Below, piece after piece: positions 1 to 23,729 of a stretch of 32,744 bases of DNA. Under the pieces are notes generated by a model. It made no database searches. It had not been told where the DNA came from and saw nothing but the letters and a program-made list of their open reading frames with translations. Location: positions 1-32,744 of the forward strand of contig BQXS01010821.1 in assembly GCA_024181965.1 (NCBI GenBank), in the 5' to 3' direction. Both the position numbers and the translations under genes were made by a program. Every line of letters begins with the position of its first letter. Position 1 is the stretch's first letter. Source of the stretch: Aduncisulcus paluster (taxonomy: Eukaryota).

Positions 1-2
1 AA

Positions 3-422
3 GAAGAAGAAGAAGAATATAGTACTGAAGACTCTGAGGAATCGACTGAGAGGAGGAAATTGCGTCATTCCAAACGTCGGGAGAGGAAGAGAAGACAACG
101 TGAGAGGGCGAAACGGAAGCAAGAAAGAGAAGGAAGTGATGAGGATTCTTGTGCTGATAGTTCAGATCTGGTGGATTACGCAGAGAGGAAAGTGGAGGAA
201 GAGCCTGAAGAAACGGTTGTTAAACGAACCATAGGAGACCTTGTTACGGATATGCTCGATATTATGGAGGAAAGACAAGGAATTAAGGAGAATGAAACAG
301 AAAAACAACCAGTGGGAATTACTGAGACTCAGGGAACATCTGACATTGAGAAAGCTGAGTTTCTTAAGAGTCAAAAGGCAATATCTACGATTGTTAATGA
401 TTTATTTGATGATTTGTTCTAG
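3..422 (+). CDS. 3' part of a hypothetical low-complexity Glu/Arg/Lys-rich protein (5' end lies outside the window)
   Basis: The frame is open from base 3 (EEEEEYSTEDSEESTERRKLRHSKRRERKRRQR...) to TAG at 420-422. Purine-rich coding-like composition drops to AT-rich sequence after the stop. The ORF-track start at 60 is an internal TTG. Confidence 0.75.
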   Translation, partial: EEEEEYSTEDSEESTERRKLRHSKRRERKRRQRERAKRKQEREGSDEDSCADSSDLVDYAERKVEEEPEETVVKRTIGDLVTDMLDIMEERQGIKENETEKQPVGITETQGTSDIEKAEFLKSQKAISTIVNDLFDDLF

Positions 423-603
423 ATATTTTCGTGTCGTATTCTTTCGCTGTATTGAAATCGTATTAATAATAAATTATTTCTTAAAATGACATTTACATGT
501 CTATTTTGTGGTATCAATGTTGTACGTTGTTTAAACAATGAGGGAGGGTAAATCTTCCATTTTCTTCTCGTATTGATGTGATAAACACACAACAAATTTA
601 TGT

Positions 604-1554
604 ATGGGAAATATTCAAGCATCTTTTCCAGATTCTCCTTTCGTTCGAGTTGATTCTAGAGTTGTAGTTCCCGAATTTGCAAAATCTCTGGTTGATGGGA
701 AAGATGATACTACATCAAAACAAAATATTCGTAAATTTATTGAATGTGAGTATTTTATTGCTTTTAATTCTCTATCACTCCTATTTGATCATCCATATTC
801 CTTCGAGTCGATTCAGTTTGCGTCTGCATGCACAAATAGGCCAACACAACTTTCTTTTGTTTTTTCAACATCTTCAGGGAAAGAAATTAAAAGAATCTGC
901 TCAATGAAACGGGTTAGTGATACTCTCCCTGGTAATTTAATATATCTTTGTCCTGTACATGTTCACAATGTAATTAGGTGTGAGATAATTTGTAAATCAA
1001 CATCACACTCTGAAAAAACATGTGAAATCATGAATTTATTTTTCATACAATTTCAAAACCCTTCGTTATTTCCTTTAGCAACAGCTGTGTCTCACTCTGC
1101 TTCTGATGTAATTCATGCTCAATTTTTGAAAGAAGGAGATTGCAAACATCCGCTTATTCCTTATTTATCGCCTCAAATTATCCAGCCCTTTGATTTTGGA
1201 GGTATTTTTGCCCATGATTCAACACTGAAAGATCTTGTTGAAAGTGTTGAGAAAGGGAAAATGGTTAAGTGGTTTTCAATATCATTCTCTCTACCGCCAT
1301 TAAGTCATGTTGATTGTATTGATATCTGTGTTGGATGGAATAGACCAATTGAAATGGAAGTATCATGTTGTACGGTGTCTGATTGTGTTGTTACAAAAAT
1401 AGTTCACATTTCAAGACAGAGTGGTTGGTTTAAAATTGAAATCGGAATCAAAAATGTTGTTCGGTGTGAGTTGCGATGTTTAAAATCTCAAGAGGGCTTG
1501 CTTTGGGGAAAGACCAATGCCATTCAAGTCATTGCGCATGAAAGTGAAATGTAA
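604..1554 (+). CDS. Hypothetical protein with two copies of a ~150-aa beta-rich domain (same family as 12607..15600); possible N-myristoylation
   Basis: 316-aa ATG ORF. Two internal repeats: PTQLSFVF...NVIRCEIICKS...IMNLFF and PIEMEVSC...GWFKIEIGIKNVVRCELRCLKS...NAIQV. The N-terminus is MGNIQAS. Confidence 0.8.
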   Translation: MGNIQASFPDSPFVRVDSRVVVPEFAKSLVDGKDDTTSKQNIRKFIECEYFIAFNSLSLLFDHPYSFESIQFASACTNRPTQLSFVFSTSSGKEIKRICSMKRVSDTLPGNLIYLCPVHVHNVIRCEIICKSTSHSEKTCEIMNLFFIQFQNPSLFPLATAVSHSASDVIHAQFLKEGDCKHPLIPYLSPQIIQPFDFGGIFAHDSTLKDLVESVEKGKMVKWFSISFSLPPLSHVDCIDICVGWNRPIEMEVSCCTVSDCVVTKIVHISRQSGWFKIEIGIKNVVRCELRCLKSQEGLLWGKTNAIQVIAHESEM

Positions 1555-1621
1555 CATTTTTTAGTATTTTGCTGACCTTGAAGGCATATCGTATTTTATT
1601 ATATTTTTAGATTAAAAGCTG

Positions 1622-1641
1622 GAAATTCTAAACTTTAGAAA
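1622..1641. other. Palindromic intergenic motif GAAATTCTAAACTTTAGAAA between convergent genes
   Basis: Inverted repeat TTCTAAA-C-TTTAGAA. Close variant of the motif at 15837-15867 and 23730-23758. Confidence 0.35.
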
Positions 1642-1710
1642 CATGAACTTTTTCAATTCGATATTTCCACCCTCTTTCTGTATCATTGAGATATTTTGTA
1701 CGGAAACAGA

Positions 1711-2271
1711 TTATTCTTCTTTTATTATTTCTGATGAATCGGGGCATGATTCGTAAAGTTCTTTCACTGTCTTCATAAGTCTAGGATGTTTTTTCTCAGA
1801 CCAAAACTCCCTAAGAGGTTCTAAAACAAACCTTCTTTCAGTCATAAGTTTATGAGGGATGGTAAGATCAGGCGTTTCGATTGAAGAGTCGCCATAAAAA
1901 AGAATATCTATGTCAACAGGTCGACTCTCATACCCATCCACAGTCTTCTTTTCTCTTCCGAAACGTTTCTCAATCTTCTGAGTTAAATGCAACAAATCAT
2001 GAGGTAATAAAGATGTTTCTAACTCAATTACTTGATTGGTAAAGGCGTCATCACTTTCAAAACCCCATGCTTTGGATTTATAGAAACTTCCAGTTTTTAT
2101 AATCTTGCCCACCTCTTCAGATAATGCACTGACAACATCTGAAAAGGTTTTTTTAACGTCCCCTAGATTACCTCCTAGCTGTAAAATTATTTTGGATGGA
2201 GAATGAGAATCGGTAGAATCGTGAGGAATCAAAATATCAGGTCTAAGTATTTTTCCAGTTATTTTGGCCAT
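1711..2271 (-). CDS. folK: 2-amino-4-hydroxy-6-hydroxymethyldihydropteridine diphosphokinase (HPPK), stand-alone bacterial type
   Basis: HPPK motifs in order: LGGNLGD, YKSKAWG, FTNQVIELET, IEKRFGR, SRPVDIDIL (two Mg-binding Asp), LTIPH, ERRFVLEPL. There is a ~24-aa extra segment at the N-terminus. Confidence 0.95.
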   Translation of the reverse strand: MAKITGKILRPDILIPHDSTDSHSPSKIILQLGGNLGDVKKTFSDVVSALSEEVGKIIKTGSFYKSKAWGFESDDAFTNQVIELETSLLPHDLLHLTQKIEKRFGREKKTVDGYESRPVDIDILFYGDSSIETPDLTIPHKLMTERRFVLEPLREFWSEKKHPRLMKTVKELYESCPDSSEIIKEE

Positions 2272-2650
2272 TTCAAGTATAATATATCAATATATCAAAA
2301 AGAATTGATTGGTTTTATAAAAGATGTGTTGTCAAATCGAAAGTAATCATCAAATAAGATTAGAACCGGTTAGTTCTGCTACCGCCGCCGGCGGAACCGA
2401 AAAATCTCATTCTTCTGCGACAAAGTTTTGATCGCCTTCACAATCCCAACTTATTTATGAATAATTATTATTGCTAACTGTATATCTCAAATCGAAGCCT
2501 TTTCTGATATTATCCATTCATTTCATGATATCCGATAGAATTGTCTCCATCATCTCATAATTGGACTTATTAGATATAATGTATATATTCTCCATTCCAG
2601 GCCTTTTCATATTGGCAAAGATTTCACTGAATGGGATTATTTATTCCAAA

Positions 2651-2879
2651 TCACGGTCCCGTGCAGATTTTTTCTTCTGGGTTCTCAATCTCTCACATGG
2701 TTGCATCAGCCTCGGTCAATTCCTTCTCAAGCTCGAGATTACGGGTTCTCATATGTGTAACTTCCTAGTTGTCGCTGAAGAACCTCCGTAAGTTCTTCCA
2801 TCTTTGAATTAGCATTGATAAGAAGTGTTATTTCCTTATGGGGATATTCCAACCGTATATGTCGCTTTATTCGTTTATT
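2651..2879 (-). pseudogene. Possible decayed coiled-coil coding fragment
   Basis: Manual translation gives NKRIKRHIRLEYPHKEITLLINANSKMEELTEVLQRQL, then a +1 frameshift to EVTHMRTRNLELEKELTEADATM*EIENPEEKI. It has heptad-like composition, one frameshift and one internal stop. Confidence 0.3.
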
Positions 2880-2987
2880 TTATCTTAATTTTTCTTTATT
2901 ATTCGGATGAAAATAGGTTAATAATCAATAATTAATCAAAATACATCCTATTTTGAGAGCCTTATTGTTCATGTTGTTTGGAATAAG

Positions 2988-3167
2988 ATGAAATACTATT
3001 CTACTCAGGACAAGAACGAAGTTTATAACAAAGATTGGTACATGGGGCAGCACAAGACTGCTCAAACAACAGCGTGGCAGAAGTTTCAGAAATGGATCTT
3101 ATTCAAGAAAAACGAAAATACAAAGAATATAAGCGTTTTAAGACATATTTTCTATTATAAAAAATAA
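2988..3167 (+). CDS. Possible small ORF (59 aa), function unknown
   Basis: MKYYSTQDKNEVYNKDWYMGQHKTAQTTAWQKFQKWILFKKN...; the frame is open from 2925. It is more GC-rich than its flanks. No recognisable homology. Confidence 0.2.
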   Translation: MKYYSTQDKNEVYNKDWYMGQHKTAQTTAWQKFQKWILFKKNENTKNISVLRHIFYYKK

Positions 3168-3490
3168 CAGAAACCAAAAATAACCTTATATATATAAAAA
3201 AATGAATTAAAAAAGAATCATACAACAAAGAACTCGAGAATAGGAGAATATAATCCTAAATTCTTTACGGCTGCTCAAAAAACAAAAATCATAAAAACAG
3301 GGCGAGTCAAAACAAAATAAAAAAACGAAACTTGTTATATAAGCTGTAAAAGATGTAAAAAACAAAAACAATGGAGTAAAAATTTGTACAATTATATAAA
3401 AAATTATACAATAATCGTTAGATTTTGTCACAAAAATCGTGCGAGAGTAAGCAGGAAAGGACACCATAATGACTATGACAATCCAAGGAA

Positions 3491-5366
3491 CTAGACTACA
3501 ATATCTTCAACACAATACACCATTCCAGTTGTTGGATCTCTGCTTTGATACTTGAATTGACTACAGTCACATCCACACATATCGAACTGGAATGACATGG
3601 CCATCCAGTTCTCATCGGGGTTGTAGTACGCCTCTTCCTCCTTCCACGTGCAAGAGAACATGAATCCGATGGGAATATTCACAGTGTATCCGAACTGATG
3701 CTCGAAGATGTTAGAGAAGGCATCCCCAAGGTATATTGAAGTAATGATCTTCAACAAGGCACTCCACTGGGTGATCTGATCATCGGTAATGTCATCAGAA
3801 GGCAACACAGAGAGGGAAGATGAGACGGGAGAGATGGAGTTGAGTGAATAAAAGTTCTGAATTGTGTTGATATAGGCATGGTCGGATAATAGAATGGCTT
3901 TGAAGGTCATCGATACAATAAAGCTCACTTCAAAGGCAATAGGATCTGTGTCCGCTCGGCTAGAATACTGTTGCTGAGAGTATTGATCGTTTTTATCGCT
4001 GTAAGAGTCAGGGATAACACCACGGACTGTGACATAGACATCGTTGTAATCAAGATAAAACCCATCAAGAGCGATACTCATGAATTCTGGGATAACGGGG
4101 TCCAAGTCAGGGGAAGAAAGGCCCCAGGATACTTCGAGGTTACATCCAGGACAAGCCAAAAGCTCATCAATGCCGAGGTCAGCGTAAGTGTCTGTCTCGA
4201 ACATGAAGGAAAGAGCACTGTCAGCCTCATACTCTCCACTCGTCCCGCAGCCATCTTTCTCGGTGATACACCCTATTCTCGTGCGGGTGGCTGTAAATTG
4301 GTTCAGCTCTTCCCACGTGGCTCTGTTGGAGGTGAATTGTTGGTATAGAGCAGCGTGGACAAAGCCTGGCGATACAAAAACTGCCATGTCTGTTCCAGCA
4401 TATATATCTGGGAAAGAAGGGAACCAAAATGGATCGTATTCGAGGAGGATTGGATCGATATATGTCAATGGGTTGTCATTCTCATCGTTCATGGTGTGTG
4501 CGAAGAAGAAAGGCATGTCACCATAGAGATCTGAAAAGGATATGGGCCCACCGATGGCTAATTCAAGGAATGTCGGATAAGGATCATAGGTATACGTGTC
4601 TCCATTTACAGGACGCAAGAACCCATTAATGAGATCAGCAGCATACGAAGACAAGAATTCTGTAAACATGGGAATCATTGCATCCTCCAAAATATCAGTG
4701 AGCAATTCGAGAATTGGGTTAACATCACCAACGTAAGAAATATGGAACTTGTCGATATTCACCTTCAAGTATGTAAAAGCTAAATCAACAAGATAACCAC
4801 ATGCATCAAGACCACAAGATTGATCGGTCGTATCAGATGTGACGACAGCTTCAATGGCAGCAGAAATATCAAAACCTTCCAGAGTAATAACTGCAGAACC
4901 AGCCATAGAAGAATAAGGAAACGTCGTTAATTTCAATGCATAGTCAACACTCATCACAAGACCAGCATCAAATAGCTCCAATTCAATTGAGTCAGGAACA
5001 ATAAAATCAACAATCATTTCGTCGTCTTGGAAAAAAGTAAAGGACTCGATATTAAAATCAGAAAAAGAAATTTCACCTTTTCCTACGCCAATATCAAAAG
5101 GAATTACACTATCAGGAATATCCATGGCATAAATGTAATCATCGAAATACGGTTCGTAGGACGTAACAGGTTCTCGCTAAATTTTTAAACACTAGGATTT
5201 TACGATAAATTGTTGGTTCGAGGCCTACATCCACCAAGTTCTTCACGCCTTGCTTAGTAATTACAAGTTTTGATGTAACGCCTGCAAGTTGTAATTCGGT
5301 ACATACAAAATTAAATAGGAATACGAAGATAATAGAGATAATAATAAACCGATAAAAATTTCCCAT
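3491..5366 (-). CDS. Secreted BPI/LBP (TULIP) family lipid-binding protein; 5' part (ATG at 5366) and main body are in different frames and need removal of a 3n+1 segment
   Basis: The upstream ORF gives a signal peptide (FYRFIIISIIFVFLFNFVCT) plus AGVTSKLVITKQGVKNLVDVG. The downstream frame gives PYFDDYIYAMDIPDSVIPFDIGVGKGEISFSDFNIESF. Together these match the BPI N-terminal pattern (ISQKGLDY...G...IKIPD...F.I...GKG..SF...I..F). The reconstructed protein is ~603-607 aa, acidic, with a Cys-rich tail. Confidence 0.8.
5151..5220 (-). other. Intervening segment in the BPI-like gene: 64-nt unit bounded by CGAACC direct repeats, or an overlapping 52-nt GT-AG intron (5228..5177)
   Basis: GGTTCG occurs on + at 5151-5156 and 5215-5220. 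Deleting 64 nt joins the two frames. The alternative GTAGGC...TTTAG intron also restores the frame. Confidence 0.6.
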
Positions 5367-5738
5367 CAAATTCACAATATAATAATTAATATTAGAATGA
5401 CAATGTTTTTTAGTAATATAAATAGCAATAATAGATAATTAATTCAGGTGGATTGCTGGATTTCGGGGGGAAAAAACTGAAACAGTTCTCTTCCTGAATA
5501 TGCAAAGAAAAATCTTGAAGAGGGCATTAATGTCAATTATAACTGTAATTTCCTCAATAAATATTAATTATCCAGAGAGATTAAAAAGTTAGAATTATCA
5601 TTCGAGATAGTCAAAATATATGGAATTTAAAATCTAAATTTTACTGATTTTTGTATTATTAATTGAAAATTATCAAAGGACTTTAAGTTCTTCGTTTTTT
5701 CATTTTACCCCAAAAATTGTTGGATTTTTGTCAGTTTC

Positions 5739-6728
5739 ATGTTTTCTAGAATTTCTTCGAGGGAAGGTCCTTTTGGATTTCCTTCATGGGATGAAGATCC
5801 TGTACATTCTATGTTGAGTGAGAATAATGTTTCGTCTCAACAAAGTCAGTGCAAGTTGTTGTCAGATCCCCCAACCGATACCGCGGAAGATCATGAGATT
5901 CATTATCCAAAAGATACCGCGGAAGATCAAAAGATTCATCATCTTTTGGATGATCGTGATCAGTTCTCTAAAACCCTAGACGGCAAAAAACCACTTGGTG
6001 TTTCGAGCCCCGTCTGTAACCCCACTGGTTTCTTCGATAGATCTACTGGCAAAAGGAGATATCTCGAGCGTGATTATCTATGTAAACATGTGAAAAATCG
6101 ATATTGTGACGACTCCATGGCGTTCTTGCTTCTCTTATTTTCTAAGTACATACCTTTGACGGCAGGCAAACGCGCTAAACTCTTGGGTCCTCTTTTAGCC
6201 GGGTGTGATTGTGAAACTGCTTTAAAGGAAGCTGGGAAGTACTGGGAGAACAGGTATCGTCATATCCCTCGTTTTTCCCTCGATAAAAAAGAAAAGTTCG
6301 GGAATATCTGGGAATCCGCTCTCGATGGAGGCACCCTTCGGGGTATTTATCAAACTGTGTTTGTAGACAGTGCTCCTGAACCAAAGAAACAAATGCTGAA
6401 AGATGTTTTCAAAGAATTATCCGAGATGAAGGGTAAAGATCCCCTTACGGAAACTCCTGGATGCGTGACATTCCACGTCGATACTCCTATTCACGAAATT
6501 GACGGTGGTCGTTATATTCGATTCATGTTTCTCCTGGCAAATTCTAACACAAAGGAATTATCCACAATCCCACAATCCATTGTTCCTTTAACACCGGATA
6601 AGGGAAAGAAGAAACAACTTTTCTGTTACTATTCGGAACCTGAGCAGAAAAAAAAGATATATGATGCTGTTCTCGCTGTTTCTACTTGTAAATATAAGGA
6701 TGACAAGTCTTGTCAGACAAGACAATGA
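5739..6728 (+). CDS. Hypothetical protein
   Basis: 329-aa ATG ORF, clearly more GC-rich than its flanks. No motif recognised. Confidence 0.75.
   Translation: MFSRISSREGPFGFPSWDEDPVHSMLSENNVSSQQSQCKLLSDPPTDTAEDHEIHYPKDTAEDQKIHHLLDDRDQFSKTLDGKKPLGVSSPVCNPTGFFDRSTGKRRYLERDYLCKHVKNRYCDDSMAFLLLLFSKYIPLTAGKRAKLLGPLLAGCDCETALKEAGKYWENRYRHIPRFSLDKKEKFGNIWESALDGGTLRGIYQTVFVDSAPEPKKQMLKDVFKELSEMKGKDPLTETPGCVTFHVDTPIHEIDGGRYIRFMFLLANSNTKELSTIPQSIVPLTPDKGKKKQLFCYYSEPEQKKKIYDAVLAVSTCKYKDDKSCQTRQ
5877..5944 (+). repeat. Intragenic tandem repeat with 36-bp period (DTAEDHEIHYPK / DTAEDQKIHH)
   Basis: GATACCGCGGAAGATCA begins at 5877 and again at 5913. Confidence 0.85.
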
Positions 6729-7464
6729 AAATGCCTTAGGATCAAAAGAAGAAAGAGGACTCCGCTTCATCGTATGTGAACCTGAGCTATATAAGGCTGT
6801 TTTACAAGTTCCTAAGTGTGGATAACTTGGAAATACTCCAAAATTGAATGTTAATTTCTCTGTTTTAATACTTATGATTTTCGATCATCAAATGTTTATG
6901 TTTGGGTGTGATTTGGAGCTGATTTATGTTAGTAACGAGATAGATTGATTTCTGATCATCGTGAATATGTGGATCTAGTAATGCTCCAGTCACTCAATAA
7001 GATTATTGAACTTCGTCATATAAATAAAGAGAACTTCATAATATTTCTATTGAGATTTAACAAGTCCATTTCTTTGGATTACCGATAGATTTGGATTGTA
7101 ATAAATTAATATCTAGCATTTTTGACTCCTATTAACTCCTGAACTCATGAAAATTGTGAGTGCCACTCATTTTCAGTGAAAATGTTCAACATTTAATGTT
7201 GTCCGCTTAATTATAAATAAATCGTACAAAATATAATATTTTACATGATATAAAATACATTTTTTGTTCCTTTTTGTCCATGAAATCTCTCTTTTTTTAC
7301 GAATATTGGCTCGAAGTTGAGGATGTTGTCGTTTTGCAAGATATTGAACTCTGATCAGAATTTTGAAATTGAAATTCACGATCATTGGGATATCAAAAAC
7401 AAAATTATTCTATATTATTCTTTTTTTATACTAAGATTCATTTTTGCCCGTTCGACAATTTAAT

Positions 7465-10400
7465 ATGCGTGGATTTGTACTTTTTCTTATTATTATCTCA
7501 ATAATTCTTCAATTATATCTTCCAGTTATGGCTGAACCTAGTGATAACCATGATGGGATAGAGGATATTGAAGATCCCTCACCCATTTTTCCCGCTGATT
7601 CTAGCTTTCTTTTGAATAATGAGGATGAATTTTATAGCACTGATACTCAAGAAGTTTTATTTTCTTCGAAACTTTTGGAGGAAAATAGGTCAGAAGATCC
7701 TCACGATGATTCTTCTTCAGACCCTATTCTCTCGGATGATTTATCCTCGATTCGTTTGTCTTTCATTGAATCCAAGGCAACGCCAGTTGTGTATTTTGAT
7801 GAGGAAACTTTTTTTTGGTATCCTTTACTTGCGATTGCGTGGCCCTTTATTCTCATTTTATGTAGTCGAGAAGAGCAATGTTATTCTGTCGATTGTATTG
7901 TTGAATGCATTCTGGATTGTTGTAAAACTTTTTTCAGTGTGTGTTTCCATGCTCTTGTTGGAGGTGGATTCATTATGTTTGGTATCATTTATGTGAACGA
8001 TGCTGAATATCCTGGATGGATTAGTTTTGCAATATTTGTCGGCTTTTTGTACCTCGTTATTGCAATTGTTGTGGCTGTATTCATTAATAATGGTTCGAAT
8101 CTTGGGTCTGTCATTTTTGTCTTGGTCGGATACTTTATTTGTGGTGCCACAGTATCACTTGGAGTGTTCATAAACCCCCTGTTCTTCATTGTGCCTGCGG
8201 CTTTGTTCATCATGTTCACGGCTGTGTCACTATGCGTTCGTTATGGCCATCCTTTGACTAAGACTGAGAAACTCAAGTTGGTAAACCTTTTTGCCTTGAT
8301 TATATGTGGTCTTGTATTCATTATTGGGATTGTTCTTGGGCTGAATGACTCTGAAATGAATATAATGTCCCTTATTGCCGGTGTATATCCTTCAATATAC
8401 CTTTCCATATATATCAAGGGGAAACTTTGGGTCTCAAATAAGCGATATGTTGTGCTCTTCATATCCGAAATCATTTCCATTGTTGGATTCATTATGTTTG
8501 GTATCATTTATGTGAACGATGCTGAATATCCTGGATGGATTAGTTTTGCAATATTTGTCGGCTTTTTGTACCTCGTTATTGCAATTGTTGTGGCTGTATT
8601 CATTAATAATGGTTCGAATCTTGGGTCTGTCATTTTTGTCTTGGTCGGATACTTTATTTGTGGTGCCACAGTATCACTTGGAGTGTTCATAAACCCCCTG
8701 TTCTTCATTGTGCCTGCGGCTTTGTTCATCATGTTCACGGCTGTGTCACTATGCGTTCGTTATGGCCATCCTTTGACTAAGACTGAGAAACTCAAGTTGT
8801 AAAACTTTTTTCAGTGTGTGTTTCCATGCTCTTGTTGGAGGTGGATTCATTATGTTTGGTATCATTTATGTGAACGATGCTGAATATCCTGGATGGATTA
8901 GTTTTGCAATATTTGTCGGCTTTTTGTACCTCGTTATTGCAATTGTTGTGGCTGTATTCATTAATAATGGTTCGAATCTTGGGTCTGTCATTTTTGTCTT
9001 GGTCGGATACTTTATTTGTGGTGCCACAGTATCACTTGGAGTGTTCATAAACCCCCTGTTCTTCATTGTGCCTGCGGCTTTGTTCATCATGTTCACGGCT
9101 GTGTCACTATGCGTTCGTTATGGCCATCCTTTGACTAAGACTGAGAAACTCAAGTTGGTAAACCTTTTTGCCTTGATTATATGTGGTCTTGTATTCATTA
9201 TTGGGATTGTTCTTGGGCTGAATGACTCTGAAATGAATATAATGTCCCTTATTGCCGGTGTATATCCTTCAATATACCTTTCCATATATATCAAGGGGAA
9301 ACTTTGGGTCTCAAATAAGCGATATGTTGTGCTCTTCATATCCGAAATCATTTCCATTGTTGGATTCATTGTTGTTGGATTCTACACTCCTGGATTAGTG
9401 TGGTGGTCGACTCTATTATTCGTGCTCTTCTTCTTGTTGTTTGTCAATGCTATTATTGGGACCGTCTGTGTCCACTCTGTGGCTTCCATCTCCAAATGTG
9501 GAACAAGTCTCTCAGTGCCAGCTATCTTTGTCAATATATGCCTCATGAGCATCTCTATTGGTCTCTTCGCTGTTTTCTTGGAATGGAGTGCACTCGTAGG
9601 GTTCATCTTCTTCCTTGGCCTGGTGGTGTTTTCCACTGCTGGTCATCTGAAGGGATTTGAAAGAGCCCATGAGTTTATCCCTCTCCCCTGGTTCACAGGA
9701 CCATTGACATTCATATGTGTCCTAGCATGGTTCCCTCTCCTTCTTGCTGGCATTGTGTGGCAGGTGTTTATGTCTTCAACATTATCTTTCTATGCCACTG
9801 CTCTATTTGCACTTGGAGTTTATGCTTTCATGTTTATTCTTGGTGGATGGAAGAAGTGGAGTGATGAGTTGATGACAAATGACATTAATACTCAAAATTT
9901 AACCAAATTCCTGAGTCCTTTGACTTCTTTCCAATTTTTGATGGTTAGTATCTCTTTTACCTTCTTTGGATGGATTGTTGGTGCTGCTGATTCATTTTAC
10001 TTTGTTGGATTGGCCATTTTCATTCCATTTTTGGTTATATTTGGGATATTTGCCCATCACAAATGGGATCTCTTCAGAGATTCTTCCTACACTGGTTCAC
10101 ACTTCTTCGTTCCAAATATTTTCTTTGGGATCTTGTCTATTGTGGGTATTTGCGCTTCCATTTTGTTCTTCTTCGTGGATGCTGCATATCCATACCATAT
10201 ATTGTGTGCTCTAGTTGGTGAATTGGCACTTGCTATGCTTGTATTTACTGTTTGTCACATAGCATTCAATCCTCAACCAATTAGACTCCTTGATGTTTTC
10301 TCATTGTTATTGTCTGGATGTTTGGGATCTTGTTTGTGTGCTTTTATCCTTAAAAAAGACATTTCTTCAAGTTTGTTCTTCATTTTGCTCGGAGTCAGTG

Positions 10401-12301
10401 TGGTTCTCTTGGTCTGTTCAATAATATGTTTGATATTCTATATATCGAAATCGACACCATCGAAGAGTCTTCTTCCGAAAGGAAATACTCCCGTGCCGGT
10501 GGTTTCTCCAAATGTTGGGGCTTTCCAGAGGGTAGGTTCACCGAGAAAGGCAAGAAAGAAGAAGAATCAAGAGGAGAAGAAACAGAAAGCAAAAATCAAG
10601 AAGCAAAAGCAAGAAGAGAAGAAAAAGAAAAACGATGAAAGAGTGAAGAGAATGAAAGATGATGAGGAAAAAAGGCAGAAAAAGGCCGAAGAAAATAGAG
10701 GTAAGATGAAGAGTAGACTGAAAAAACAGAAGAAATTTTTCAAGTTAGAAGAACAAATGCGAAGGTACAAAGTCTTTGATANNNNNNNNNNNNNNNNNNN
10801 NGGTTCACCGAGAAAGGCAAGAAAGAAGAAGAATCAAGAGGAGAAGAAACAGAAAGCAAAAATCAAGAAGCAAAAGCAAGAAGAGAAGAAAAAGAAAAAC
10901 GATGAAAGAGTGAAGAGAATGAAAGATGATGAGGAAAAAAGGCAGAAAAAGGCCGAAGAAAATAGAGGTAAGATGAAGAGTAGACTGAAAAAACAGAAGA
11001 AATTTTTCAAGTTAGAAGAACAAATGCGAAGGTACAAAGTCTTTGATATTAGTCCCAAGAATGTTAGAGTATGTCCTGTCCCCATTGGAAAGGGTGGATT
11101 TGGATCCATTCATGAAGGAAAGTTTAAAAAACTTCCTGTTATTGTCAAGAAGGTAAAGAGTACGGCCGTGCCCCTTCTTGAATCGAAGGGAGAACTATAT
11201 TATCAGTGGAAAATATACAAGGCATTCCAACACCAATTCTGTCCCGTTCCGGTTCCATATGGAAGGTATTTCAACGAAGAAGAGGAGAGATTATGTCTTG
11301 TGATGGAACATTGCAAGGGTGGGTCAATTTGGGATATATTCAATGGCGAAAATAGCATGTATGATTCACCTGAAATTGGAACTGAGGATGGAGCTTTACA
11401 AGCTGTTTCTATTTGTTCTGGAATGATTTGCTCCACTGGAATTATTATTCAAGAAATGAAAAAATTTCGACATTTAGATTTAAAGCCTGAGAATTTCTTT
11501 ATCCGAAGAAAGGGGAAATACGGAGAGGTGATTGTCGGTGATTTGGGTTTTGCCAAAGTTGAATCGACACTCTCTCGTTCTACACTTGCCAAGCAAGACA
11601 TAAGAGTATCGTCAGCCGACAGAGAAGAATCTTCTTGTTCAGATGCTGAAAGCGGTGCCAAAAATAATTGTGCTCAGGGAGATCCTCATTATTGGCCTTT
11701 GGAAATATGTGAAAATCTTTCGAATCCCACGAATCTTATTCTTTCTCGATGTGATAGCTATGCCTTGGGTTTGTGTATTTATTATGTCTTTTCAAGTGGT
11801 AACTTAGCTTTTTCATATCCTACGAGTCCATTGAATGAGAAATCTCCAAAGTTTCTGGTCCATGTTAAAGAAATGATAAGGCTACGAAAGGAAGAGCTTC
11901 CCAAGCTCGAAGGTACTGTTCATTACAAAACATTGAAGGCTAGCAAGTGTGAAAAGAAAAGGGAAATTGCAGATATTTTCCTCAAAATCTACAATGGTTT
12001 GACCACAAATGATTATCACAATAGGATGAAAATTGCAACTTATTTGAAGAAGAGCAAGAAACATAATGAGAAGAAAGACGGAGAAAAGAAAGATGAAGAC
12101 AAGGATGAGAGTGAAAAGGATGAGAGTGAAAAGGACTCAAAGAAAGAGCTGAAGAATAAGGAAAAGAAAGAGCAGAAGAAGAAGAAGAAAGAGAAGAAGA
12201 AAGGAAAGGGGAAGGAAGAAGAGGGAGATACTGCCTATTCTTTGATTCAATCCATTGCAAAAGAAATTCCAAAATTTGAGTTTACGTCAAATGAAAAATG
12301 A
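7465..12301 (+). CDS. Polytopic membrane protein kinase (signal peptide, acidic ectodomain, ~19 TM segments, Lys/Glu coiled coil, non-RD kinase domain); split into two ORFs here by duplications
   Basis: ATG at 7465 is followed by a hydrophobic signal. Kinase motifs: GKGGFGSI, VIVKK, LVMEHC, HLDLKPEN, GDLGFA, GDPHYWPLE, CDSYALG. Removing the 877-bp internal duplication and the 267-bp gap duplication leaves one 3693-nt ORF (1230 aa). Confidence 0.85.
7919..9370 (+). repeat. Exact nested tandem duplication/triplication inside the kinase gene
   Basis: 7919-8493 = 8796-9370 (offset 877), and 7965-8280 = 8484-8799 (offset 519). Junction microhomologies are TGGATTCATT and GTTG. No differences were seen between copies by eye. 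Confidence 0.92.
10535..11048 (+). repeat. 247-bp exact duplication flanking a 20-N gap (probable scaffolding overlap artefact)
   Basis: 10535-10781 = 10802-11048; Ns at 10782-10801. Confidence 0.92.
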
Positions 12302-15809: not shown

Positions 15810-16387
15810 GATTTAAAGACATTTGAGTTTTTTTGATTTCTAAAAATAGAAATTCTAAAAATAGAAAATGTCATTATTTTTTCGCTGGTATTATCGATAT
15901 TAATATTTCATGCTCTTGACAATAATTTTTTTTTGTTATTTTGGAATCCTATGCTTTAATTTTTCCCTGAAATTTTTTCAGGGTTTTAATAATAAAAGTA
16001 AACAATATCTTGACAATTACAACATAGCCTAGGGTTTAACACAGCGATTTCAAACTCAATGAAAAGGATGTCTTTATTCGTTCCTATGNNNNNNNNNNNN
16101 NNNNNNNNGATTTAAAGACATTTGAGTTTTTTTGATTTCTAAAAATAGAAATTCTAAAAATAGAAAATGTCATTATTTTTTCGCTGGTATTATCGATATT
16201 AATATTTCATGCTCTTGACAATAATTTTTTTTTGTTATTTTGGAATCCTATGCTTTAATTTTTCCCTGAAATTTTTTCAGGGTTTTAATAATAAAAGTAA
16301 ACAATATCTTGACAATTACAACATAGCCTAGGGTTTAACACAGCGATTTCAAACTCAATGAAAAGGATGTCTTTATTCGTTCCTATG
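15810..16387 (+). repeat. 279-bp exact duplication flanking a 20-N gap (probable scaffolding overlap artefact)
   Basis: 15810-16088 = 16109-16387; Ns at 16089-16108. Confidence 0.92.
15837..15867. repeat. Tandem palindromic motif (TTCTAAAAATAGAAA)x2 between convergent genes
   Basis: A 15-bp unit occurs twice, each an inverted repeat TTCTA-AAAA-TAGAA. 29 bp are identical to 23730-23758. The motif is also in the gap-duplicated copy at 16136-16166. Confidence 0.7.
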
Positions 16388-22376: not shown

Positions 22377-23729
22377 ATGTCTCAACTCCATCAACCTCAA
22401 GTTTCCCCAATTCCTCAGAAAGCTCACACTCAGCTTAAAGCTTTGATAGAATCTATCAAACAATCACCAAATTCATCCGACTTAAAATGCATCTATGAAG
22501 AAAATATTCCCCATCTAAAGACAATTTTCAAAGATTTTACAAACCTTCAGTCTTCAAGAGAACTCCCTTTTGTCGCTTCTTCTCCCTCATATCTTGCCAT
22601 GGATGGAGAAGTATCCAGACAAGAAGTTCTTCTTATTATGGGTAAACATCTTGAAGAACATCACTTTTGATAAGGATAACATCAACCCTCATAAAGACCG
22701 TTGTTCACGACTTTGGTTTGTATTCCATCCTGTCTTGGATGTTGTGAAGGATATTGACATTCCACTTGATGAAGATTATGAAACAGATCTCTGTCCACTT
22801 GATGTTGATATTCTAATATCATGCATTTCATTCTTTTCTCATTTGTGTTGCATCCCTTCACAAGCCATCGAAGTCTGTAATAATATCAAAGATGGACTTC
22901 TTGATGGATGGTTGGAGTTAGCNNNNNNNNNNNNNNNNNNNNAAACATCTTGAAGAACATCACTTTTGATAAGGATAACATCAACCCTCATAAAGACCGT
23001 TGTTCACGACTTTGGTTTGTATTCCATCCTGTCTTGGATGTTGTGAAGGATATTGACATTCCACTTGATGAAGATTATGAAACAGATCTCTGTCCACTTG
23101 ATGTTGATATTCTAATATCATGCATTTCATTCTTTTCTCATTTGTGTTGCATCCCTTCACAAGCCATCGAAGTCTGTAATAATATCAAAGATGGACTTCT
23201 TGATGGATGGTTGGAGTTAGCAAAGAGAATCAAAAAATATGAGAGGAATAATAATGTTATTGAATGCCTGTTTAAACTTATTTCCATGTTTCCTGCTGTT
23301 CCAGAACTTATTCCATATATTGCTGGTAAATACGATGAAATTGTGGAGTGGTATCACAGTGATGATGGAAGTGTGAATGAGATGTATGAAAAATATTTGA
23401 CAGAAGTATGTGCATCAAGATATTTCATAGAGCACGATTCTCGTCTAAAGAAGTTATCAGACGATATCGAAACAATTACCAAGAAATCAATGGATTCAGA
23501 TGGTCCTTTAAATCTATACCCTGAACATATTAGGATCATTGAAATGCTTGCAAAGAGAAACTCTTATTTCATCAGACTTCCTTTACTTACCCTTATCAAA
23601 CCATTTCTTATAAATATGTTGAAAGGTCCTGACTATTTAGATTTGTTCCGTGGTGATTATGATTTGTTCAGTAGTAATTATCTTTTGGGTTTCTTTTTGA
23701 TTAGAATAGATGATAATAATTTTTTGTGA
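22377..23729 (+). pseudogene. Frameshifted member of a lineage-specific alpha-helical protein family (pseudogene or mis-assembled gene)
   Basis: ATG 22377 gives MSQLHQPQVSPIPQKAHTQLKALIESIKQ...IFKDF. The sequence continues in another frame as SLLLPHILPWMEKYPDKKFFLLWVNILKNITFDKDN...LWFVFHPVLDVVKD. After removing the 299-bp gap duplication the length is 3n+1, so a frameshift remains around 22540-22590. Confidence 0.6.
22644..23221 (+). repeat. 279-bp exact duplication flanking a 20-N gap (probable scaffolding overlap artefact)
   Basis: 22644-22922 = 22943-23221; Ns at 22923-22942. Confidence 0.92.

Follow-up and report, generated by a model that had tools for sequence, protein, structure and literature searches.

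A BPI-like gene of Aduncisulcus paluster, a free-living fornicate, is interrupted by 64 nt that we attribute, with a probability of about 0.9, to a recent insertion of a non-LTR retrotransposon of the restriction-like endonuclease (RLE) type, extremely truncated at its 5′ end, flanked by a target-site duplication (TSD), and probably inactivating one of many BPI-like paralogs. The segment is an ordinary insertion and not an unusual intron. It lies in the window, by which we mean the whole 32,744-nt stretch of DNA that was analyzed.

The interrupted gene and its paralogs

On the minus strand, direct repeats of CGAACC at 5220–5215 (the 5′ copy of the TSD) and 5156–5151 (the 3′ copy) enclose a 58-nt core at 5214–5157, which has the same sense as the host gene. 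Upstream of them, positions 5366–5221 encode the start codon, a hydrophobic leader that appears to be a signal peptide, the first strand, and the beginning of the first helix; the 3′ coding part, 5150–3491, contains no further stops or shifts. Read from the ATG at 5366, the frame runs into a premature stop at 5141–5139 after 75 codons, and a second frame of 561 codons (5176–3491) continues downstream of the stop, its next in-frame ATG at 5125 giving a 544-aa product without the leader (P0001). Deletion of 64 nt yields a single 603-aa frame. The repeats, the frameshift, and the stop are thus as described in the initial annotation.

A search of the genome with the protein returned at least 28 matches, the gene itself included, some matches being the second part of a gene already matched. 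Open frames of 603–685 codons are present in nine close paralogs; the closest paralog is only 44–45% identical, and no near-identical second copy was found among the genome matches listed. A profile of 14 family sequences matched human BPI (E value 1.4e-8), PF01273 matched 2 of the 14 members, and a Pfam search of the 561-aa frame alone gave no family. The predicted structure (pLDDT 69, pTM 0.54) had BPI as its first match (E value 1.7e-17), followed by LBP and CETP. By profile and predicted structure, the product is assigned to the BPI/LBP/CETP (TULIP) superfamily with a BPI-type fold, in agreement with the BPI-like call made at first reading. It resembles these proteins in its profile and fold matches and in belonging to a multicopy family, but is ∼12% identical to BPI and has extra Cys-rich inserts. 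Expanded BPI-like families are described from diplomonads, with 40 members in Trepomonas (PMC4967989).

As had been suggested initially, we aligned paralogs over the helix at the insertion, using 15 of the 27 nonself loci; fragments, second parts of a gene, and five distant members were omitted. The spacing in all 15 is that produced by removal of 64 nt, and none carries element-derived residues. Against the family profile, the reading with 64 nt removed scored 185.6, compared with 173.4, 172.2, and 156.5 after removal of 52, 31, and 130 nt, respectively. The claim that exact excision gives the best protein and that the canonical 52- and 31-nt alternatives fit worse therefore holds, but its cause lies in the recreation of an earlier allele and not in removal by the cell: as the 64-nt removal alone fits 15 of 15 paralogs, it recreates what is, by comparison with the paralogs, the pre-insertion allele. 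We infer that the event was recent, since the gene is otherwise free of lesions and the core matches the commonest copy of the element without a difference.

A recently active RLE-type element would have entered the gene by target-primed reverse transcription, a chemistry that we adopt from the R2 literature. The nuclease of the element would have cut the target with a 6-nt stagger; reverse transcription, begun near the 3′ end of the RNA, would have ended after 58 nt; and CGAACC would have been left on both sides by repair, staggered cutting being described as an origin of TSDs (PMC6895275). The net gain of 64 nt would shift the frame and leave a 75-aa dead-end peptide or, at best, the leaderless 544-aa protein; loss of function of the gene appears most likely. 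The knockout would be tolerated because of the many intact and presumably redundant paralogs, and an insertional knockout in such a family is of little import by itself.

Four paralogs (L019, L021, L022, and L024) have a canonical GTATGT–AG intron of 81–98 nt in the Glu/Gln codon inside the TSD; the remaining 11 paralogs in the alignment, the closest among them, lack this intron. In a 13-row tree, the window gene clusters with six intronless paralogs with 100/100 support, which argues that it was intronless at this position when the element arrived. The chance of the TSD overlapping an intron position is ∼1% (two intron positions, seven equivalent cuts, and ∼1810 nt) in a comparison that was made post hoc, and we treat the overlap as a coincidence; a shared insertion-prone site is a conjectural alternative.

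A family of 5′-truncated retrotransposon copies

The search for other copies of the core, also proposed at the outset, was productive. The 58-mer has at least 44 matches in the same genome with up to three mismatches, at least 36 of them exact, and its reversed control has none; the last 21 nt have at least 57 matches, again with none for the control. These counts are lower bounds; the 57 rows include several duplicates that stem from the assembly. The copies have a common 3′ end, and the same 9-nt continuation is found in 39 of the 57 listed; the window copy is without this terminus, which is wholly missing in only 4 of the 57. The 5′ ends, in contrast to the common 3′ end, are scattered over 22–689 nt in the 36 listed copies whose 5′ junction can be seen (10 of the 36 are shorter than 58 nt), and the remaining 21 run into contig edges or gaps. 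A repeat of at least 6 nt flanks 19 of the 36 copies vs. 121 of 1258 (9.6%) mismatched flank pairs serving as control, with the proviso that some of the script-called TSDs are distant from the element end and a few possibly due to chance.

The flanks of the copies revealed no common target, and no poly(A) tail was found on the copies. The 3′ end of the element and the TSD are separated by 0–27 variable bases, and many of these stretches begin with one of two short strings. Such stretches, of up to ∼20 bases, were seen at L005, L008, L039, L044, L045, L050, L057, L058, L186, L188, and L192, and may represent read-through from the flanks of two source copies together with untemplated bases. Pairing between target and tail was considered as a cause of the missing 9-nt terminus and rejected, the cases being two (the window and L194, which has a similar target) and the match poor.

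Walking upstream through the overlapping copies L053, L069, L076, L118, and L124 (overlaps of 288–1080 nt at 96–99.8%), the chain leads from the core to a reverse transcriptase (RT; PF00078, 47.3 bits, cut-off 29.6). By eye, the frames of L118, L125, L076, and L069 show the RT followed by CCHC and then by nuclease motifs in variant form, with GH for RH, PD..D, K..K without the Y, and G..G for RG.W; the reference set given for the R2-type nuclease is of the CCHC, RH, PD..D, K..KY, and G.W type (PMC4838377). No Pfam model matched the nuclease part of the element. An RT profile of five pieces, two from the element family and three from sister families, matched R2 proteins best (E value 4e-18) and then LINE-1. 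The copies recovered include none of full length and lack the 5′ end of the element; core and RT are linked through successive overlaps, and the copy with the RT is both broken and nested. Taken from these sequence comparisons, the core is the 3′ end of an RLE-type non-LTR retrotransposon with variable 5′ truncation. Protein searches for its clade returned the organism's own or unnamed proteins, and one piece alone gave weak matches. The unnamed relatives P0004, P0006, and P0007 appear CRE-like by their motifs. Our literature search found no Aduncisulcus retrotransposon, and the family is apparently undescribed.

By hand count, ∼380 low-complexity residues interrupt the nuclease after the K..K helix and ahead of the last strand (L118:6203–7155, L076:1–1007, and L069:4981–5662); in the sister family L132, the insert is shorter and at a different point. 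The RT-bearing copy has another RT element nested within it (L118:7155–8084), two element 3′ ends meet tail to tail in L042:529–641, and another short copy (L195) lies upstream of the BPI paralog L013.

Among eight other copies checked, two, L186 and L045, are in long open reading frames, both in antisense. Their net 74 and 398 nt shift frames of 500 and 481 codons, in which translation ends 9 and 4 codons past the junction, respectively, with no donor nearby.

Splicing, elimination, and assembly error

In 31 Ras-family loci, we called host introns by profile score, imposing only GT or GC and AG. There were 23 calls, 19 of which start with GTA(T/C)G, 16 of the 19 being GTATGT; four calls were dropped, two over the assembly gap in L154 (margins of 0.3 and 1.2 bits) and two at frameshifts (L171 and L172). 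Added to the 19 were eight introns from the four BPI paralogs, chosen with the donor motif as a condition, the donor being tested by the Ras set only. The resulting 27 introns are 67–175 nt long and 43–65% T, with donor scores of 2.9–12.9. As seen in L135–L181, host introns have a near-invariant GTATGT donor and a T-rich body, and no branch-point motif is evident close to the acceptor. The related Rab-like genes L171 and L172, in which a frameshift falls about halfway through the GTPase domain, are probably pseudogenes.

The frame of the window gene can be restored by GT–AG pairs removing 52 nt (5228–5177) or 31 nt (5203–5173), both recognized in the initial annotation, and also by pairs removing 58, 70, 88, 130, and 148 nt. 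The 130-nt pair (5306–5177), which had been overlooked, joins a GTATGT donor at 5306 to an AG at 5178–5177 supplied by the element and is the only frame-restoring candidate with the host consensus donor. Its donor scores 9.7, compared with 1.0, −6.3, and −20.7 for the 52-, 31-, and 64-nt candidates, all three of which are shorter than any of the 27 host introns. The proposed rescue of a TSD-flanked insertion by cryptic splice sites was right about the insertion and improbable in the sites named, and the sequence comparison makes the 130-nt pair the best candidate for a rescue route.

We regard it as unlikely that the spliceosome rescues part of the transcripts through the AG at 5177 and an upstream donor, in the manner of an intron being born; the GTATGT at 5306 would be the most plausible donor, and that of the 52-nt pair a less plausible one. 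The score of the 5306 donor and the 130-nt length are within the real ranges, the 5177 acceptor (score 1.4) beats 3 of the 27 real acceptors, and among six AGs 55–190 nt downstream of the 5306 donor only that of the element restores the frame. Against this, the candidates are only 28–32% T (28% for the 130-nt one), far from the 43–65% of the real introns, and the 130-nt form falls 29 bits under the ancestral reading, its removal deleting 29 conserved codons. The motif GTATGT is not sufficient for splicing, since intronless paralogs contain it six times in 16,935 coding bases. Slightly more doubtful still is the fuller version, in which the element's AG and the dormant 5306 donor would give a spliced, in-frame, secreted variant at an insertion-prone site shared with the paralog intron. 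A real 130-nt splice would offer a testable example of an intron founded by a fragment of a retrotransposon, and this in a lineage in which intron loss has been studied.

Separately assembled contigs bear on all readings in which the segment is absent from RNA or DNA. The X1 contigs 2714–5185 and 5186–5840 contain both junctions, with a depth equal to that of the unique flanks, and continue unforked from the TSD into the core, and the X2 contig 2714–5186 holds the 3′ junction; they reach 29–30 letters into the core, the bridging rule being 31 letters. The X2 contig passes the acceptors at 5177 and 5173 without a break, by only 10 and 14 letters, and may be DNA. No joint skipping any part of the segment was seen in the contigs of X1 or of X2, the latter only guessed to be RNA, and positions 1–7400 contain no known intron as a positive control for splicing. 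X2 leaves uncovered 315–581, ∼5435–5784, and 6940–7400, all intergenic, as would be expected of RNA; they are, however, also AT-rich (26–31% GC). X1 and X2 come from one sample, the window DNA may itself derive from X1, and contigs drop rare forms. No empty-site contig was found among the 40 scored of 63 genome candidates. Overall, the contigs lean slightly toward retention of the segment.

Exact excision of the 64 nt from RNA as a noncanonical intron would explain the best protein, and TSD-flanked noncanonical introns are reported from elsewhere (PMC11282704). We consider it very improbable here: as noted at first reading, sliding the boundaries yields no GT–AG, and none of the seven equivalent cut positions has GC–AG or AT–AC either, the ends scoring −20.7 as donor and −17.1 as acceptor. 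No RNA fold joins the ends (z 0.67), and Rfam gave nothing at gathering level in 5000–5500. The core is moreover a retrotransposon 3′ end whose sister copies differ in length and in orientation, and the contigs contain no corresponding joint.

Programmed DNA elimination, or an insertion-free allele kept in the culture, would likewise leave the gene working, and the direct repeats at the ends would permit exact loss by recombination. This we find scarcely credible, as neither the genome search nor the X1 contigs, which enter the core without a fork, showed an excised form, an empty site, or a gene copy closer than the 44–45% paralog, with the reservation about rare variants made above. An assembly error pasting a repeat into the gene is negligible in our judgment: the window does have three N gaps flanked by exact duplicates, and X1 is possibly not independent of it, but X1 contigs hold both junctions and X2 the 3′ one, and a 6-nt TSD of the size usual for the family is not expected from misassembly.

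Relation to known elements and further features of the window

The retrotransposon insertion, which we continue to prefer, resembles those of RLE-type elements, listed as the R2, R4, NeSL, CRE, and HERO clades (PMC4640811), in the order of an RT followed by CCHC and a nuclease of the PD..D, K..K type, in the common 3′ end with variable 5′ ends, and in the short TSD from a staggered cut. Unlike most R2, R4, NeSL, and CRE families, the Aduncisulcus element has no fixed target, HERO being the mostly nonspecific clade; it also differs from the reference elements in lacking a poly(A) tail, in the variable bases before the TSD, and in the low-complexity residues of its nuclease.

The insertion also recalls introners, being a short repeat, near-identical among copies, that lies with its TSD in a coding exon. 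Introns derived from transposons can come from non-LTR elements (PMC12130899, PMC11282704), and ∼5% of categorized introners are attributed to non-LTR retrotransposons (PMC12130899). Unlike introners, however, the core has no splice signals at its ends, no terminal inverted repeats, and no fixed length, and the three copies found in long open reading frames all shift the frame. We rejected an introner identity, as no GTA(T/C)G donor of the host type exists on either strand in the last 270 nt of the element and the host frames are broken instead of left intact.

The case documents a recently active, non-site-specific RLE retrotransposon, apparently new to the literature, in a free-living fornicate. 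The element scatters very short fragments, some of them into genes, which can mislead gene annotation.

Elsewhere in the window, three 20-N gaps have exact flanking duplicates of 247–279 nt (10535–11048, 15810–16387, and 22644–23221), and tandem copies at 7919–9378 are 99% identical; both the duplicates and the tandem are probably assembly artefacts. A stand-alone HPPK gene of the folate pathway lies on the minus strand at 1711–2286 (PF01288, E value 1e-32) and is possibly of bacterial origin.
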